A stretch of DNA of 15,215 nucleotides from a virus (lineage: Duplodnaviria > Heunggongvirae > Uroviricota > Caudoviricetes). Positions 3,014 through 15,215 of this stretch are shown piece after piece (within the stretch, counting starts at the first letter, position 1; every line of letters begins with the position of its first letter). A program made the translations under genes and the position numbers. The stretch lies in the IMG/VR virus record IMGVR_UViG_2627853678_000004; one strand, given 5' to 3'. The notes under the pieces were generated by a model. The model saw nothing but the letters and a program-made list of their open reading frames with translations, was not told the origin of the DNA and made no database searches.

Positions 3014-3373
3014 ATGAGAATGACCAACCGCAAAAAAGAGATACTCAGCTACTTTGAGCCGGATAACCTCGAATGGGTGACAGGTGAGATTGGTGCGCCG
3101 CCGTTCGATGTATCGGGCGTGGCCTACCTGCTTCACGGCATGGTGTCGTTCGATAATCGCCACCAGCTCGAATCAACCCGGCGCACGCTGGAAAACATGG
3201 TTGCTGGTGGACTGCTTGAGCGGGTGACAGTGTATGAATCGCGCCAGATACGGCGCGGCGGTGAGACTAACGCAACGGTCGTGCGCTACGGTTTACCCGG
3301 TCAGTGCGCTGTTATGCGCGATACTGGCGGCGCTGATAACGCAATATCAGGTGAATACATGCGGGTCAGTTAA
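3014..3373 (+). CDS. hypothetical protein (119 aa)
   Basis: The only convincing plus-strand ORF in the window; non-repetitive protein-like composition (MRMTNRKKEILSYFEPDNLEWVTGEIGAPPFDVSG...). An AGGAA lies upstream, and 3020 is an alternative ATG. I do not recognise the family. Confidence 0.45.
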   Translation: MRMTNRKKEILSYFEPDNLEWVTGEIGAPPFDVSGVAYLLHGMVSFDNRHQLESTRRTLENMVAGGLLERVTVYESRQIRRGGETNATVVRYGLPGQCAVMRDTGGADNAISGEYMRVS

Positions 3374-3908
3374 TAGCCTGCAATCTGTCGTTGATGCGGC
3401 TCAGGTCGTAAACCCGGCGTTCAATATCCAGCATCAGGAAATTGTGGATCTCGGCCTGCTCAGGATTATCAGACTCTCTGGCCTGTAATAGCAATTCATT
3501 GTAACCATGCAAGCCGCCTGAGTTTTCCGCCGGGGTGGTGCCTTTCCCACGCAGGCAGCTAATGGGCTGATTGCTCGTATCGTGTGTTTGCTTCTCCAGC
3601 ACAATGACGCAATCCCACCAGTCGCCAAAGTCATACGTGTAAACCAGCTTGTCACCATCATTCTGGAGCGCTGCCCATAGTGGTGTGATTGCCGCATTAC
3701 CCATGCTTTCATCCTCACCCCATACGCGATACTCGCTACCGGGATCACCTTTACGCCCTTTCTCGAACATATACAGGTGTTCGTCATTCCAGCCAAAAGC
3801 CAACTGGATCACCGCGTGAAGTTCACTAAAGGGGATTTGCTCTGGAACCAGCACACGCCGCCATATAGGTGGTTTGCTGTCTCGGATGGTTATCTTTAGC
3901 TGGTACAT
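3366..3908 (-). CDS. pRiA4b ORF-3-like family protein
   Basis: Start placed at the internal ATG 3906-3908 (MYQLKITIRDSKPPIWRRVLVPEQIPFSELHAVIQLAFGWNDEHLYMF...), with AGGA 7 nt upstream. The YQLK...PPIWRR...GW.D.HL pattern is the recalled signature of the pRiA4b ORF-3-like domain. The six-frame ORF extends to 3956 without support. Confidence 0.6.
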   Translation of the reverse strand: MYQLKITIRDSKPPIWRRVLVPEQIPFSELHAVIQLAFGWNDEHLYMFEKGRKGDPGSEYRVWGEDESMGNAAITPLWAALQNDGDKLVYTYDFGDWWDCVIVLEKQTHDTSNQPISCLRGKGTTPAENSGGLHGYNELLLQARESDNPEQAEIHNFLMLDIERRVYDLSRINDRLQAIN

Positions 3909-3991
3909 GCAAATCCTGAATAAATGCGAATCGGAAGGATAACGATACTGACGCACTCACAATTCTGTAAAGGTGAATAAAGGTAATTTGC

Positions 3992-5420: not shown

Positions 5421-5732
5421 TTACTGCGAACCATCGCCCCCGCTGGTGGTATGCCGTTGCCTCTTGCCGCCATTTAACCGGAAGGCGTTACCGTTCGGTT
5501 GCGCTATCCCCATGCGGTGCTGAGTTTCGGTGACAGCTTTATGCAGGTCGCCAAAGTCCTCAACCTTCACGGGCGGGCGCTTCACGTTCTCCAGACACGT
5601 TTCACGGCGGCGCTTTATCCATTCCCGATCATCGTCCTCGGTGCATAACAGCATGACTTCCATCCATCGCGCGGCGGCGCGTCGGTACAGCCCTTTTGCT
5701 TCCAGATCCTCAGCTTTGCTGTCGTTTACCAT
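5421..5732 (-). CDS. PerC-family transcriptional regulator
   Basis: ATG at 5730-5732 preceded by GAGGGGGG; product MVNDSKAEDLEAKGLYRRAAARWMEVMLLCTEDDDREWIKRRRETCL..., matching the recalled PerC-family N-terminal pattern. It sits 11 nt downstream of the ssb stop. Confidence 0.65.
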   Translation of the reverse strand: MVNDSKAEDLEAKGLYRRAAARWMEVMLLCTEDDDREWIKRRRETCLENVKRPPVKVEDFGDLHKAVTETQHRMGIAQPNGNAFRLNGGKRQRHTTSGGDGSQ

Positions 5733-5743
5733 GTTCACCCCCC

Positions 5744-6205
5744 TCAGAATGGCGTTTCATCGTCGAATGGTGGGCGCTGGTCAAAATCATCAGGGGTGTT
5801 ATATAGCTCCCATCCCGGCGCGGATTGCGTTTCGTGGCCCCTGCTGGCTCCACTTGCTTTGACTGACTCGGCCCGCTTCCCGCCGGGGCGTACCGTTCTG
5901 GCGCTGATCACGCTGTCGGCTACTACCTGATACCCCTGCTGTGTACCGCCATCCTTGCCCGCCCACTGATTGACCTGCATCGCTCCGGCAACACTGACTA
6001 AATCGCCTTTAACGTGTCCTGCCAGTGCGTCGGCCTGTTTGCCGAATGCCACCACGCCCAGCCAGAAAGTAACCTCTCCGCCCTCTGCTGCATGGCAAGG
6101 CAGTGCCACCGCTAAACGCCCCATTGTCATGCTGCCGCCGCTGTTTGTCGTTCTGGTCTGGGGATCTGCCACCAGCCGCCCGTAGGCTGATATCTGTGCT
6201 GTCAT
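5744..6205 (-). CDS. ssb: single-stranded DNA-binding protein
   Basis: 153 aa with OB-fold-like N-terminal region, a Gly/Gln-rich linker and the acidic C-terminal tail FDDETPF typical of bacterial and phage SSBs. GAGGT Shine-Dalgarno. Confidence 0.75.
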   Translation of the reverse strand: MTAQISAYGRLVADPQTRTTNSGGSMTMGRLAVALPCHAAEGGEVTFWLGVVAFGKQADALAGHVKGDLVSVAGAMQVNQWAGKDGGTQQGYQVVADSVISARTVRPGGKRAESVKASGASRGHETQSAPGWELYNTPDDFDQRPPFDDETPF

Positions 6206-10612: not shown

Positions 10613-10781
10613 GATGGCAGCCTCTATACAGTGAATTTTGAATTCACCACCAAGAGACGCCAATCTCAGACTGGTGGTGAGCTGAACAAGGTTGGCGTAA
10701 CCGGCCTGTATAGACACCGGCCTTCCTTTCGGAAGCCTCATCCAGCCCACCATAATTTGGGTGCGCAGGAATTTTGCCGAC

Positions 10782-10804
10782 AAAAAAACACGCTTAGTGC
10801 GTGT
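10782..10804 (-). terminator. putative intrinsic terminator or attenuator in the leader
   Basis: On the minus-strand RNA, ACACGC-loop-GCGUGU (6 bp stem, 5 nt loop) is followed by UUUUUUU. It lies inside the long non-coding-looking region upstream of the small-ORF/primase operon. Confidence 0.35.
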
Positions 10805-11132
10805 CGGCACTATACAGGTTATCGGGACGCCAATCCCGGCACCTGATTTTGCAGGTGCGCTATAACCATAAACCGGGTTGGCGATAGTCGGCAAGCCCTT
10901 TTTTATGGACTCGCAAAACTCACCTTCGCGCGTGCGCGTACTGGTCGCAAAACTCGAAAAAAACTTAGGATTTATTAGGATTCGCAGCCCAATTCTCAGC
11001 CCAGAAAACGCCTCTAAAATGTCGTCATTTGTCGCAACGGCGCGGCGATGAATGTCAGGTTTTGACAGGTTGTAAGGGTTAACATTTGTTAACAGGCTAG
11101 CCAGATTAAAGGCTTCTTTCTGGGCGGCAGGT

Positions 11133-12152: not shown

Positions 12153-12587
12153 TTAGGCGGCGGTGAGATTGTCCGGGTATAGATTGAGAATGTCGGCAAT
12201 TTCAGGCTGAGAAAGTCCCTGATAGCCCCCAGCGTCGGCGTTATGGTTCACAAGCCGAATAACTTTTAGAACGTCACCGCGCCCGGTAAAGCGATAGCGT
12301 AAATGTGACCCGATCCCGTCGGGATTCTTTTCGTCGATACGCTCTAACTGAATATCAAGCCTGCGTTCTAACTCGCTGGCGTAGTTCCTTCCAGACGAAA
12401 GGCGGCAGTAGCGCAGAATGTCGTTTTCTGTCCATCCCTCTACCCCAGTGCGTAGCATATAGACGCGGGCGCGGTGCTTCTTCGGTGTGCGGCGTGGCGC
12501 TTGTGTGGTGGGCGCTGGTGGCGTAACATCAGATCCGCGAATATCTATGTTAGCCGCCTGCTGTCCGGGGCGGTTTTCTTTTTTCAT
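12153..12587 (-). CDS. hypothetical protein (144 aa)
   Basis: Its ATG (12585-12587) overlaps the AlpA stop as ATGA. Basic, Pro-rich N-terminus followed by a globular region. Family not recognised. Confidence 0.55.
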   Translation of the reverse strand: MKKENRPGQQAANIDIRGSDVTPPAPTTQAPRRTPKKHRARVYMLRTGVEGWTENDILRYCRLSSGRNYASELERRLDIQLERIDEKNPDGIGSHLRYRFTGRGDVLKVIRLVNHNADAGGYQGLSQPEIADILNLYPDNLTAA

Positions 12588-12805
12588 CAGGCCACCTTCC
12601 CGCGACGCTCTGCCAGCCAGTTGTTAATCTCTACCGCATCAAAGGCGGTAATCTTCTCGCCCAGCTTTACCGGGCGCGGCAGAACCCCATTGCGAACTTT
12701 GCGATCAATGGTGGAAACGCTAACGCCCAGCAATTCAGCAAGGCGGAAGCGTCGGATATAGCCAGATTGGGGGATTGTGTGGGTTGTTGCGTTATGTGTT
12801 GCCAT
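12587..12805 (-). CDS. alpA: AlpA-family transcriptional regulator / excisionase-like protein
   Basis: 72 aa with the helix-turn-helix pattern RLAELLGVSVSTIDRKVRNGVLPRPVKLGEKITAFDAVEINNWL, characteristic of AlpA-family proteins found next to P4-type integrases. Confidence 0.8.
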   Translation of the reverse strand: MATHNATTHTIPQSGYIRRFRLAELLGVSVSTIDRKVRNGVLPRPVKLGEKITAFDAVEINNWLAERRGKVA

Positions 12806-12879
12806 ATGTCCCGTAACCTCTTTTGATGGTTGTTGCTTCGTTACGGGTATGATGGGAGCAATAGATTGTAATGTATCGG

Positions 12880-12916
12880 AATTATTAGAAAACTCCCCGG
12901 AATTTTCATAATTCCG
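12880..12916 (-). terminator. hairpin immediately after the stop of the AT-rich gene (terminator or operator-like)
   Basis: CGGAATT-TTCAT-AATTCCG is a perfect 7 bp stem at 12898-12916, followed on the minus-strand RNA by GGGGAGUUUUCU. An additional CGGAATT direct repeat lies at 12877-12883. Confidence 0.3.
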
Positions 12917-13840
12917 TTATCGGTTGACTCCCCCTTTTCGCAGCCAATCTATAAGCGTCTTATCATCATCCGGGAGTGGTAGCTCCTCACCTTTATTGTT
13001 AGCTTTATTTCTCAGTTGTGTAATGCTGCCTTTTAAATCACTATCGGTTAAGCCTATACGTTTAAGTAATGCGACAATTAGTCTCATCTGTTTTTCTGTT
13101 GTTTTTACTGGTTTTCCTACATTCATTTCCGTCGGCGGTAAGGGAATAACACCTCCGTTAATCATGCTTTTAATCGGCTCGCCTGTGTCTATTGCGTCTT
13201 TGAGTTTTAAAATGGTATCTCTGGCAATAAATAGATCGGAAGTTGTCAAAGTCTCATTAAGCGCAGGTTTTCGGCTCTCACTTAACTGAAACCCTATGCT
13301 TTCGGCTAGTTGTCTGTTTAGCGTAGGTAGCCAGCTCTGATTAAAATATCTATCGCTAATTATCTGACACGAAAGGCCAGTCTTCTCGCGGAAAGTGTCC
13401 CATCCGAACGGCCTGAAAATTGTCGTGTCTATCACCCTTGCCCTCTTAGAATAAAGAAGACTTTCTATTTCACTGTGTCCCAGACACCATAGCCCGTTCG
13501 CCAATCCTCTAAATAAAATAAGCCCACTATCTGTTTTGTATGCGTCATGTTCGGTGAGCGTGGAATTAAAATGAGATATATAGTTGCCCTCACGAAAAAG
13601 AAATGATGAGTTTCCTTTGTGTTCGTGATAAAACTCAATTGGGTCTTTTATATCTTTACCGCCTATAAAAGCCAAAGTAGAAGAAAATCCTCTCATCATT
13701 ATACACAACGGTATAGCCCCAATAACTCCATAGTGAAGTAAATCATCTGTATCGCATTGCAAAATACTAGCTGCCCTGTCGAGCTTAAAGTATTCCATAG
13801 GTGGGATTTTAATACTGCTGTGGGCTTCTTTTTTGGTCAT
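12917..13840 (-). CDS. hypothetical protein (307 aa), AT-rich orphan gene between integrase and AlpA
   Basis: First ATG at 13838-13840 with GGTGA upstream; the six-frame ORF start at 13855 is a GTG. Sampled 60 bp windows are about 33-45% GC against about 58% in the primase gene. No family motif recognised. Confidence 0.6.
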   Translation of the reverse strand: MTKKEAHSSIKIPPMEYFKLDRAASILQCDTDDLLHYGVIGAIPLCIMMRGFSSTLAFIGGKDIKDPIEFYHEHKGNSSFLFREGNYISHFNSTLTEHDAYKTDSGLILFRGLANGLWCLGHSEIESLLYSKRARVIDTTIFRPFGWDTFREKTGLSCQIISDRYFNQSWLPTLNRQLAESIGFQLSESRKPALNETLTTSDLFIARDTILKLKDAIDTGEPIKSMINGGVIPLPPTEMNVGKPVKTTEKQMRLIVALLKRIGLTDSDLKGSITQLRNKANNKGEELPLPDDDKTLIDWLRKGGVNR

Positions 13841-13955
13841 CGCGTCACCTTTCACGCTGTGCCTTAAAGAGTGATTGAGCCAGGCGGTAAGGCTTCCCGC
13901 TTTTCGCCCCGTCGGGCTAGGCTCAATCTGTCCTCTGATTCTTTACATATCTTGG

Positions 13956-15215
13956 TTACTTCGCCTTTCTCAGCGGTGTAACGTTGTACTCTTCGCCGCG
14001 CTCCAGTGCCACCAGCAATCCCGCCCACTGTGTTAACGCGGCCCGGCGTTCATCAAAGTATTGGTGGCGGTTATAGATACCCTCCACGCCTTTAATTTTG
14101 TGGTTAAGGCATCTTTCTGCGACTACAGGATCAACGCCCAGCGCGGCTAAATGGGTGCGGGCCGTGCGCCGGAAGTCGTGAATAGTGAAATTCGGCACGT
14201 CCGGCATTTCAGCGCGAACCTTCGCCAGCGCAACGGGCAGGGTGCTTTCCTGAATATGGGGGATCATGCGGTTTTGCATCTTTCTGGCTGGCAGTACCCA
14301 TGCGCTGTTGCATGAGAACGTTTTAAGCTCTCTCAGCCATTCGACTGCTGGCGGTGCTAATGGAATGTCTATAGCGTCGCCGTTTTTGCTGCGTTCCTCT
14401 GGCAAGCGCCATACGGCTTTATCAAGATCGAACTCCTCCCAGCGGGCGGCGCATAACTCCATTTTGCGGACGCATAACGCTAACAGTAATTTGAACGTGA
14501 TTTCATTCTGGCGACTGAAACCCTTAGCCGTGCGCATGGCTTTGAATAGCTGGATTAACTCATCGCGTGTTAGCCAGCGGTCGCGGCTAACCTCCTTCCC
14601 TCCAGCGTCTGCCACCTCAAAGGCTGAACAGGGGTTAATCTCCAGCGCGTGCCGTTTGATTCCGTAGTCGAATATGCGGCGCGTCCATCTCAGCACGTCC
14701 GTTGCTATGGTCGGCGCTCCACGGTCAACAATACCTTTCAGCATGTCGTCGATATGGCGCGGCTTCACGTCCTCTACCTTCATGCTGCCAATGCAGGGGT
14801 TTATATCTTTGTCGATACGGCGGCGGAGTATATCGGGGTGCTTCCAGCGGGGCAGTATCTGACGTTCAAAGTATTCAGCGGCAAGCTCTGAAACGCGCAT
14901 GGCGTTTTTTTCTGCTTCCATCTTCGCCAGTGCTTCGGATTTCCGCTCCTGCTTCTCCCCGGCAACGTCATAACCCAGCGCAACACGCGCCGAAAGCTCC
15001 TTTGCTGTCTCTCTGGCCTTTGATAGTGATAGCTCGCTATACGAACCAATTAGCATTGCGCGGGACTTCCCTGCGAGTTTATAGCGGAATCTCCATGTGG
15101 GGGTTTTGTCGGCTTCACGGTAACGCAGGTATAAGCCGTTCCCGTCCGCCCGTCCCTCGAATCGCTCTCCGGCCTTTATCCACGCGCGGATCTGCATGTC
15201 TGTGAGTTTTGGCAT
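13956..15215 (-). CDS. int: tyrosine recombinase / integrase, P4 family
   Basis: 419 aa; N-terminus MPKLTDMQIRAWIKAGERFEGRADGNGLYLRYR is typical of P4-type integrases. C-terminal catalytic region has HDFRRTARTHL and GIYNRHQYFDERR. The start codon is at the last base of the window. Confidence 0.9.
   Translation of the reverse strand: MPKLTDMQIRAWIKAGERFEGRADGNGLYLRYREADKTPTWRFRYKLAGKSRAMLIGSYSELSLSKARETAKELSARVALGYDVAGEKQERKSEALAKMEAEKNAMRVSELAAEYFERQILPRWKHPDILRRRIDKDINPCIGSMKVEDVKPRHIDDMLKGIVDRGAPTIATDVLRWTRRIFDYGIKRHALEINPCSAFEVADAGGKEVSRDRWLTRDELIQLFKAMRTAKGFSRQNEITFKLLLALCVRKMELCAARWEEFDLDKAVWRLPEERSKNGDAIDIPLAPPAVEWLRELKTFSCNSAWVLPARKMQNRMIPHIQESTLPVALAKVRAEMPDVPNFTIHDFRRTARTHLAALGVDPVVAERCLNHKIKGVEGIYNRHQYFDERRAALTQWAGLLVALERGEEYNVTPLRKAK

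Follow-up and report, generated by a model that had tools for sequence, protein, structure and literature searches.

What does the AT-rich gene lodged between the integrase gene and alpA do for a phage satellite? AlpA is the master activator of Gram-negative PICIs (PMC6092414, PMC11773190). However, no global repressor of these islands has been identified, and both the inducer and the route by which helper phages activate alpA are unknown (PMC6092414). The window analyzed here, a stretch of 15,215 nucleotides of viral DNA (IMG/VR record IMGVR_UViG_2627853678_000004), carries an element of this kind. Its int, alpA, and primase-replicase genes lie in one orientation, the gene order of a Gram-negative PICI or P4-like satellite, and neither Pfam searches nor the RefSeq annotation of the 13-kb island reveals a phage module for structure or lysis. 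Immunity RNAs of the P4 C4/isrK type were found, and the P4 hallmark genes psu, sid, and delta are not among the RefSeq-annotated genes, as judged from the annotation alone. In Escherichia coli, the RefSeq context places the island between yicC and dinD, with int at its integrase end; alpA is the first gene of an operon that extends to the primase. Between int and alpA, in the order int, X, alpA and on the same strand as both, lies the gene called X here.

An earlier note on this DNA had described X as an AT-rich orphan gene between integrase and AlpA and had proposed it as accessory or defense cargo. Its coordinates, length, neighbors, and compositional contrast are all borne out: the GC content (Table 1) compares with 0.548 for int, 0.553 for alpA, 0.574 for the primase gene, and 0.514 for the entire window, and GC3 is 0.373 versus 0.617 in int. 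RefSeq likewise has a 924-nt coding sequence annotated as a hypothetical protein; an alternative start, GTG at 13855, would give 312 amino acids. As to function, we put at roughly one in two the probability that X and the 40 bp following it form a swappable regulatory cassette controlling alpA in this P4-like/PICI-type satellite. X is more likely the on/off regulator of the island than an anti-phage gene, because its family is always found in this slot, beside a matching pair of repeats at the candidate alpA promoter.

Table 1. Features of the int-alpA region, in window coordinates
Feature	Position	Strand	Details
P4-type tyrosine integrase gene (int)	13956..15215	-	419 aa; Pfam Arm-DNA-bind_3, Phage_int_M, Phage_integrase
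int-alpA RNA motif, Rfam RF02996	13861..13927	-	64.9 bits versus gathering score 35.8
Gene X	12917..13840	-	307 aa + stop codon; ATG 13840; GC 0.406
X residues 15-45, winged helix-turn-helix	13706..13798	-	MerR/excisionase/AlpA type
X residues 46-222, hypervariable alpha+beta middle domain	13175..13705	-	proposed sensor part
X residues 223-247, flexible linker	13100..13174	-	recombination joint to C-terminal module; pLDDT <60
X residues 248-307, basic C-terminal module	12920..13099	-	four helices; pLDDT ~90
Operator-like array	12877..12916	.	directly after X stop codon
Dyad O1, CGGAATT-N5-AATTCCG	12898-12916		first base is the base after the X stop
Second, weaker dyad or half-site	12877-12890		21 bp from O1
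Candidate sigma-70-like alpA promoter	12881..12909	-	-35 ATGAAA 12904-12909; -10 AATAAT 12881-12886; spacer 17 nt
alpA leader hairpin	12810..12847	-	CCCGTAAC ... GTTACGGG
alpA, AlpA/HTH_17 regulator	12587..12805	-	72 aa; Pfam Phage_AlpA E=5.6e-8

The failure of the earlier note to recognize a family motif was repeated in the database searches. No model in Pfam, NCBIfam, or PADLOC matched X (nothing at E<=0.1 in Pfam and 0 families even at E<=10 in PADLOC-DB 2.0.0), and the sole PHROGs match was phrog_7144, of unknown function, at E=0.035. This PHROG was also matched by 6 of 67 relatives of X (best E 2.5e-6), and 66 of 67 family members were without a Pfam match. The word "orphan" has nevertheless to be given up: a profile search gives at least 434 representative clusters, defined at 50% identity, at E<=1e-3, of which 114 also pass E<=1e-10. 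The N-terminus of X is conserved throughout the larger set, and nearly all members are 260-340 amino acids long. A profile search of a word-indexed database made few additions, the C-terminal 72 residues as a query returned only fragments, the whole-family profile found nothing among PDB sequences, and tblastn gave no match in phages. The order int, X, alpA was seen in all six relatives whose encoding contig was looked up and at every profile match within the loci fetched with an integrase. X is a member of a large, unnamed protein family that occupies a fixed slot between int and alpA in phage-satellite islands.

The slot itself is more uniform than its sequences. An identical X gene is found in 33 of 5426 complete E. 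coli genomes, and in about 136 others only an int-proximal leader of about 100 bp is shared, with a different ORF of about 280-320 amino acids standing in place of X. Three plasmid records appear to represent elements of this kind as well. In related islands of about 35 species, an int-alpA gap of 0.8-1.2 kb holds one co-directional, AT-rich ORF; of 42 such islands, drawn from many genera, about 36 have this ORF on the same strand, with locus L042 carrying two in tandem and IS elements also occupying the slot in some loci. These ORFs have a GC content of 0.33-0.49, compared with 0.43-0.58 for int, encode 216-350 amino acids, and fall into five recurrent classes with shared modules. Modules are called shared only where sequence clustering shows them, and common ancestry is not claimed, because profile-profile comparison found no significant relationship among classes A, B, and C (best E=0.039, over the HTH). 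Pfam searches of ten occupants from unmatched classes or unclassified gave no match except one AlpA-like HTH. The earlier description of a variable cargo slot holds for its content, which differs between E. coli genomes, but the slot does not behave as a generic cargo or defense hotspot would. Conservation of the gene in every related element, which had been named as evidence against a defense role, is nearly seen for slot and architecture but not for sequence. In the prototype EcCICFT073, neither a gene nor the int-alpA RNA lies between int and alpA, so that X is lineage-specific and a regulator of this type is not a general feature of Gram-negative PICIs.

These features also bear on the possibility that X is single-gene anti-phage cargo, an abortive-infection or sensor-effector protein whose variable middle domain recognizes phage proteins while another part is the effector; the repeats would then serve alpA and be unrelated to X. 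Several traits typical of new defense genes are present: X is rich in AT, its alleles are hypervariable, the gene is swapped as a cassette while its flanks stay conserved, and curated family libraries do not contain it. However, a true hotspot would be expected to hold varied systems of varied sizes, whereas this slot holds one ORF built of shared modules. When 11 occupants including X were compared with PADLOC, none matched at E<=0.001, and the one weak match, to PDC-S31 (E=0.002), was among the ten others. The only fold recognized in X is a regulator-type winged HTH; no effector domain, whether enzymatic, toxin-like, or transmembrane, was recognized. Defense cargo would also leave unexplained the phased repeats described below, which change with the C-terminal module of X and not with AlpA. 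None of the computed results speaks for an anti-phage role, which is judged unlikely, and for the X family, AT-richness and adjacency to an integrase are insufficient grounds for counting its clusters as candidate defense genes.

The architecture of X is consistent with a regulator. Three parts make up the protein: the N-terminal winged helix is acidic, the middle domain hypervariable, and the C-terminal module (hereafter C-module) basic and composed of four helices. A second AF2 model has a mean pLDDT of 84.3. The N-terminal domain has the fold of DNA-binding regulators and excisionases, with a winged HTH of the MerR type, and is the sole segment conserved family-wide (R22, A23, L27, C29, D33). 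It is net acidic, as it is in 90% of family members, and does not have the basic residues that excisionases carry in the recognition helix. Past residue 46, the model shows a beta-rich domain and no coiled coil; this middle domain is hypervariable, as would fit a part to which a helper-phage protein binds. At the linker, alignment between C-terminal types breaks, and identity between locus L066 and the window falls from 0.93 to 0.40. Seventeen C-terminal clusters are shuffled among the N-terminal/middle types. The C-module, with the consensus TxKQxxxIVxLLxxxGLTDxDxxGSIxxLxxK...PxxDDKTLxDWLxKxG, is the only basic part of the protein, its charge being +5 in X and positive in 74% of members. No relative of it was found in Pfam or the PDB; matches to designer-PPR entries of the PDB were rejected as an artifact, each being a sum of about 10 repeats with i-Evalues of 40-90. 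The tandem paralogues of L042 are 58% identical in the C-module, 29% at the N-terminus, and 24% in the middle, and this locus has a single repeat array, after the second gene.

Further evidence comes from the array between X and alpA. In the window, CGGAATT/AATTCCG units occur three times about 21 bp apart, and these are the only copies in 15 kb, all within 40 bp. Other alleles have the same layout with a different sequence: in the intergenic stretch after X, 8-mer direct repeats (at most one mismatch) at a spacing of 20-22 bp are present in 21 of 27 loci, compared with 3.5 expected and a maximum of 10 in 300 shuffles. The spacing histogram peaks at 21 bp (14 loci versus 1.3 expected), and smaller, secondary maxima are seen at 10 and 40. 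Repeat similarity goes with similarity of the C-module (Mantel r = 0.28, p = 0.001), a modest correlation among phylogenetically related loci, and not with the N-terminal/middle part (r = 0.08, p = 0.18) or AlpA (r = 0.01, p = 0.47). Thus, the repeats associate with the C-module rather than with AlpA, an association much of which is explained by linkage alone, because module and repeats are physically adjacent.

Particular pairs illustrate the association. C-modules of the KQ..IV.LL type occur with GAAAAYTCC/GGAATT dyads, those of the NRE..YPDEC type with AGGNACAGTA-N-TACTGTNCCT repeats, and those of class B with TTCGCAGCGAAAA..TTTTCGTTGCGA repeats. Between the window and L007, nucleotide identity is 94% in the repeats, 77% in the DNA encoding the C-module, 75% in the 5'UTR, and 40-53% in the rest of X. 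C-module similarity does not, however, predict the site exactly, because the C-module of L088 is close to that of the window and its repeat is noticeably different (GAAAACTCCAC type). Other binders were considered and rejected: AlpA, since the AlpA proteins of L005 and L024 are 97% identical and stand behind unrelated repeats, and host factors, since the repeat sequences are allele-specific. Int is about 86-92% identical to that of the window across alleles with different repeats.

Alternatively, the inverted repeats could be a terminator of X, or hairpins for RNA stability, inherited with its 3' end, with the role of X unrelated to alpA. The earlier note had seen a hairpin here that could insulate X from the alpA operon, and this is correct insofar as the inverted repeats begin right after the stop codon and can fold as a 17-bp RNA hairpin; the 136-nt stretch that holds this hairpin and that of the alpA leader has a fold z of -3.4. 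Several of the repeats can form RNA hairpins as well, the palindrome of at least one allele, L004, is followed by TTTTTATT, a T-run resembling a terminator, and symmetric changes of the arms would also be expected of an RNA stem. On the other hand, there is no U-run in the window and a terminator scan of the X strand was negative, while in several alleles (L002, L018, and L023) the array consists of direct repeats alone or of two palindromes set apart, neither of which a terminator would need. The spacing of 20-22 bp, kept whatever the sequence, is that of sites on one face of the DNA helix rather than of RNA stems. We regard the terminator explanation as improbable.

About equally improbable is that X is a recombination-directionality or integrase-accessory factor, whose winged helix works with the co-transcribed Int and for which the repeats are architectural sites comparable to Cox/Apl or Vis boxes. 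The N-terminal domain has a suitable fold but is acidic, and it is invariant while the repeats vary. Furthermore, more than 2 kb separates the repeats from the island end expected for attP; they lie directly at the alpA promoter, and AlpA already supplies an excisionase-type function in these elements (PMC6092414, PMC11773190).

Whether X would repress or activate alpA depends on where alpA transcription begins. By consensus scan, a candidate promoter with 9 of 12 consensus matches is embedded in the operator-like array, in a region in which the number of sigma-70-like sites is not above chance. If transcription instead started at the alpA leader hairpin, X could act as an activator, with the repeats at about -48 and -69. 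The 3' arm of this hairpin lies between the Shine-Dalgarno sequence GAGG and the ATG. Read directly from the sequences, its arms co-change in other loci (CTCGTAAC/GTTACGAG, CCCCTAAC/GTTAGGGG, CCCCATAAC/GTTATGGGG), and its similarity tracks that of AlpA (Spearman r = 0.77). RNAalifold predicted no pairs in the leader, where the variable loop was misaligned by MAFFT.

A second structured RNA, missed in the earlier note, lies upstream of X. It matches the int-alpA motif, which Rfam lists as a candidate sRNA named for its flanking genes (RF02996), over the full length of the model (positions 1-71), with an 8-bp outer stem around two hairpins; a single-sequence fold reproduces this structure (z = -2.5). 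Starting 28 nt past the stop codon of int, the RNA ends 20 nt short of the X start codon, ATG. Its nucleotide identity is 88-99%, versus 40-53% in the adjacent coding DNA, and it also precedes unrelated slot ORFs of classes A, B, and E. Because it always stands directly before the ORF, 12-20 nt from the start, we suggest that it is a cis-acting leader of the slot ORF rather than a free sRNA.

These results have led to the following model. X, probably co-transcribed with int, would begin translation within the conserved leader that carries the int-alpA RNA. Most likely, the C-module, as a dimer, binds the pair of phased dyads located at the alpA promoter or immediately upstream of it, and the middle domain senses a partner, probably a helper-phage protein; the acidic N-terminal winged helix may contact something common to all alleles. 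X would most likely be a master repressor, like Stl of the SaPIs or lambdoid cI, that keeps the alpA operon off while the island is integrated. A cognate phage signal would bind X and so release alpA from repression, and different alleles would make up different specificity or immunity groups. A bolder extension, offered tentatively and with rather less confidence than the cassette itself, is that the X family is the missing helper-sensing master regulator of a large enterobacterial lineage of int-alpA satellites. It would pair a previously unrecognized C-terminal DNA-binding module of four helices with tandem operators that co-evolve with it, and would add a hypervariable sensor locked in an arms race with helper phages and an acidic winged helix that does not bind DNA. 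The int-alpA RNA would set its expression in cis, and alleles would define immunity or helper-specificity groups.

If X and its repeats are such a gatekeeper, then pairs of phages and the islands they induce become directly testable, as do cassette differences between co-resident islands and the role of the otherwise orphan Rfam motif. The C-module would be a small DNA-binding module of a new kind, whose naturally occurring pairs of protein and operator are a possible source of orthogonal regulators, and names could be given to several hundred "hypothetical protein" clusters from Enterobacterales and their relatives.

Among known proteins, YfjH of the cryptic prophage CP4-57 in E. coli K-12 (318 amino acids, uncharacterized, AT-rich gene with GC 0.37) is also encoded between intA and alpA, but on the opposite strand, divergent from alpA; no homology with the X family was detected (hmmsearch E = 0.06, score -0.9). 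X differs from the MerR family in having no match to Pfam MerR/MerR_1 and no dimerization coiled coil, and its helix that should read DNA is acidic (DTDDLLHY), unlike those of MerR, excisionase, and AlpA proteins. From AlpA/HTH_17 it differs in being four times the size of AlpA, not a profile-matching, small (~60-75 amino acids), basic protein. The lambdoid immunity regions (cI/cro, imm434 versus imm-lambda) offer a parallel in organization. There, a regulator and tandem dyad operators form a cassette between conserved flanks, as proposed for X; in both, the cassette is AT-rich relative to its flanks and many specificity types occur on similar elements. Fold and architecture differ, the X repeats being 3' of the gene and the cI/cro operators between divergent genes, and X has no Cro-like partner, although AlpA follows it. 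Comparison with Stl/Rpr, from the SaPIs and other Gram-positive PICIs, revealed no similarity in sequence. Stl is divergent, whereas X is co-directional with the alpA operon; the DNA-binding part is an N-terminal HTH in Stl and, as proposed, the C-terminal four-helix module in X; and the downstream master gene at the X locus is an activator, AlpA, unlike in the Stl/Rpr systems. Nevertheless, Stl/Rpr and X are alike in being encoded beside int at the boundary of the regulatory/replication operon, in being highly divergent between elements, and in joining a DNA-binding part (a putative one in X) to a variable partner-binding part. By analogy, X, like Stl/Rpr, may silence its satellite until a helper-phage protein binds.

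The 307-aa gene between int and alpA, here termed X, was described in an earlier note as an AT-rich orphan and candidate accessory or defence cargo. Its composition and position have been upheld: GC is 0.406 (GC3 0.373), compared with 0.548, 0.553, and 0.574 in int, alpA, and primase, respectively, and the minus-strand gene order places integrase on one side and AlpA on the other. The window represents the integrase end of a ~13-kb island, whose insertion site in E. coli lies between yicC and dinD. A 1150-base query is matched at 100% identity over its full length in each of 20 E. coli chromosomes among the matches listed, and at ≥99% identity in 32 in all. Two dinD genes lie in the same orientation, ~340 bp apart, encoding proteins 84% identical; the island seems to have inserted at dinD and to contain a copy of its own. 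The PerC homologue of another E. coli PICI is a reported repressor of LEE (PMC11773190). The C4, isrK, and c4-a1b1 RNAs downstream of alpA constitute a P4-type CI RNA immunity system, found likewise in five related loci (L005, L009, L014, L022, L038).

Features of the window, and repeats found 3' of the slot ORF in related loci (L labels)
Feature	Position	Strand	Remarks
int	13956-15215	minus	first in gene order
int-alpA RNA (Rfam RF02996)	13861-13927	minus	64.9 bits, gathering score 35.8
X	12917-13840	minus	307 aa, start ATG 13840
Operator-like repeats	12877-12916		3' of X stop codon
alpA leader hairpin	12810-12847	minus	CCCGTAAC...GTTACGGG; between alpA Shine-Dalgarno and ATG
alpA	12587-12805	minus	AlpA/HTH_17 protein, next after X
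144-aa protein, AntA/B (Bro-network), DUF4222, Icd-like region		minus	in this order after alpA
C4 antisense RNA, isrK, c4-a1b1 target	10670-10871	minus	72.4, 75.8, 48.4 bits; inside Icd-like region
primase		minus	last in listed order; 919 aa, Zn-ribbon/Toprim/DUF927
PerC-family regulator, SSB, pRiA4b ORF-3 family protein	5421-6205, 3366-3956	minus	RefSeq annotation of identical island
dinD, two genes	2055-2879, 880-1716	minus
L002 repeat			AATAAAATTTA, two copies
L005 and L009 repeat			TTTCGCAGCGAAAA..TTTTCGTTGCGA
L023 repeat			GGAATATTCC, two copies
L018 and L042 repeat			GAAAC(T/C)TCAC-type units
L004, L012, L024, L025, L026 repeat			AGGNACAGTA-N-TACTGTNCCT
Class C repeat			TTAATAGA or TTGATGGAA, three or four units

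X has no match in Pfam, NCBIfam, or PADLOC, and its best match in PHROGs is at E=0.035. A word-indexed search gave ~50 close relatives, every one named 'hypothetical', in Klebsiella, Raoultella, Citrobacter, Enterobacter, Dickeya, and Lonsdalea, and profile searching against 1.8 billion representatives gave 434 clusters at E<=1e-3, of which 114 reach E<=1e-10; consequently, X is not an orphan. Nearly all of these clusters are 260-340 aa long, and most align to the X profile over two segments, one covering the first ~50 residues and the other lying farther along. No relatives were found among phage genomes, and when the encoding contig of proteins of the X family was looked up, the order was int, X, alpA in 6/6. 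Three 'plasmid' records carry an X relative; the one inspected is the same kind of element, and all three appear to be. A 22,859-bp circular K. pneumoniae 'plasmid' (L094, NZ_CP033626.1), typed as non-mobilizable, contains pRiA4b-ORF3, int, an X-like gene, an HTH gene in the AlpA position, AntA/B, DUF4222, Icd-like genes, and a tape-measure gene; it probably represents a satellite of this type in excised, circular form.

Using integrase as bait, 79 related loci were fetched, one per species, of which ~42 were informative. In ~36 of these, the int-alpA gap (the slot) holds a single co-directional ORF; L042 has two in tandem, and a few other slots also contain IS elements. The slot measures 0.8-1.2 kb, save where an IS element has inserted, and in the tabulated loci the GC of the slot ORF (0.33-0.49) is below that of int (0.43-0.58). 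About half of the slot ORFs match the X-family profile (class A); other recurrent kinds are B (~295 aa), C (~216-237 aa), D (~240 aa), and E (238-287 aa, two loci). Profile-profile comparison gives no proof of homology between classes, but modules are shared: the class-B C-terminal module is also found on class-A N-termini. Among ten occupants, from unmatched classes or unclassified, Pfam matched none bar one AlpA-like HTH; of ten occupants compared with PADLOC, nine had no match and one a weak match (E=0.002). Within E. coli, the window's X allele is present in 33 of 5426 complete genomes; in ~136 others, similarity is limited to query ~1025-1150 (window 13830-13955), and the same place is taken by another 'hypothetical protein', 281-321 aa long. 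Thus, the slot varies in sequence, whereas its occupancy, orientation, size, and composition stay constant. This pattern does not look like a generic defence hotspot, and X is not random cargo; a defence role, suggested originally by composition and position, is considered improbable. Repeated IS insertion has occurred in or beside the slot (L004 4357-5967, L017 7381-9524, L025 7705-8475, L054, L061); in E. coli ECONIH4, for example, ISSpu7 lies between X and alpA.

The int-alpA RNA upstream of X, whose structure is reproduced by a single-sequence fold, is a ~100-bp segment common to E. coli islands with different X alleles. It precedes ORFs of classes A, B, and E at a fixed 12-20 nt from the start codon, and this spacing holds in the window and six other loci whatever the ORF class. 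Where the slot ORF directly adjoins the int stop codon, as in classes C and D, and is thus translationally coupled to int, the motif is missing. No promoter-like sites were found between int and X; X is presumably co-transcribed with int, and the RNA would be its leader. Rfam classes RF02996 as a candidate sRNA, whereas the window copy looks like a cis-acting leader.

Downstream, the dyad CGGAATT-ATGAA-AATTCCG starts at the first base after the X stop codon, with a third AATTCCG copy 21 bp beyond it; the heptamer occurs nowhere else in the 15-kb window. A candidate sigma-70-like -35/-10 pair, a consensus match only, is embedded in these repeats. Equivalent repeats lie directly 3' of the stop codon in every allele, and their sequence differs each time. 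An 8-mer recurs at 20-22 bp (<=1 mismatch) in 21 of 27 loci, compared with 3.5 expected and a maximum of 10 in 300 shuffles, and 21 bp is the commonest spacing (14 loci versus 1.3 expected), lesser maxima lying at 10 and 40. Such sequence-independent helical phasing is what protein-binding sites on one DNA face show, and there is no reason for RNA stems to be so phased. Some palindromes, such as that of L004, could double as terminators; repeats that serve solely as terminators are a less probable explanation than defence cargo. Immediately before the alpA leader hairpin lies a -10-like box (TTTAAT or ATCATA); if it sets the transcription start, the repeats would lie near -48 and -69, typical activator positions. 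The arms of this hairpin change together across loci (CTCGTAAC/GTTACGAG, CCCCTAAC/GTTAGGGG, CCCCATAAC/GTTATGGGG, ACGTAAC/GTTACGT), which suggests a conserved RNA structure controlling alpA translation.

An AlphaFold2 model of X (50-sequence alignment; mean pLDDT 84) comprises an alpha+beta domain (residues 46-222), which is the most variable part and has no convincing structural relative, a linker of low confidence (223-247), and a four-helix C-module (248-307; pLDDT ~90), the sole basic part of X (+5), with no known sequence or structural relatives. The 177 full-length members fall into one N-terminal, ~26 middle-domain, and 17 C-terminal clusters, types that have recombined freely. The linker is the joint: Shimwellia L066 shares 89-93% identity with the window's X up to residue 225 and ~40% thereafter. 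The tandem paralogues of Leclercia adecarboxylata (L042 7347-8915) are 58% identical in the C-module, 29% in the N-terminus, and 24% in the middle, with only one repeat array, 3' of the second gene.

Each C-module family has a separate repeat family. In Mantel comparisons of 19 loci related by descent, based on the 58 nt next to the stop codon on its 3' side, repeat similarity correlated with the C-module (r = 0.28, p = 0.001), but not with the N-terminal/middle part of X (r = 0.08, p = 0.18) or with AlpA (r = 0.01, p = 0.47); similarity of the alpA leader tracks AlpA (Spearman r = 0.77). L005 and L024 have AlpA proteins 97% identical and unrelated repeats. Int is ~86-92% identical to the window integrase across loci with differing repeats. 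Linkage contributes to the association, the module and repeats being neighbours in loci related by descent. Between the window and Enterobacter L007, identity is 94% in the repeats, 77% in C-module coding DNA, 75% in the leader, 71% in alpA, and 40-53% in the rest of X; consequently, the non-coding repeats are more strongly constrained than the sequences on either side. In Lonsdalea L088, the C-module is near the window's and the repeat is visibly shifted; specificity, if real, would then be set by a few residues rather than by overall similarity. X might instead be a recombination-accessory factor, a role likewise rated below defence.

The best-supported interpretation is that X together with the repeats acts as a regulator-operator cassette for the alpA operon, and the probability that X regulates alpA via these repeats is put at about 0.5. 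The cassette would be bordered by the int-alpA leader on the left and the alpA leader hairpin on the right, and would be exchanged whole or at the linker. In the favoured form of this model, X would act as a repressor and detect a product of the helper phage through its hypervariable middle domain, a reading preferred because of the analogy with Stl of SaPIs and lambdoid immunity regions; this specific form is a tentative proposal, less likely than regulation as such. For Gram-negative PICIs, no global repressor is known, nor is the phage-encoded inducer of alpA (PMC6092414), and in another E. coli PICI alpA induction is helper-dependent (PMC11773190). X and its repeats would be a variant of a satellite master regulator or immunity cassette. 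In EcCICFT073, the prototype Gram-negative PICI, int adjoins alpA, with no ORF, int-alpA RNA, or C4 RNA; therefore, the cassette is a trait of one particular lineage that is nearer to P4. The prototype alpA locus, CP4-57 of E. coli K-12, also has an AT-rich, uncharacterised gene between intA and alpA (yfjH; L085 3145-4101, 318 aa, GC 0.37), but yfjH, encoded on the opposite strand at a distance of 43 bp from alpA, is no homologue of X.
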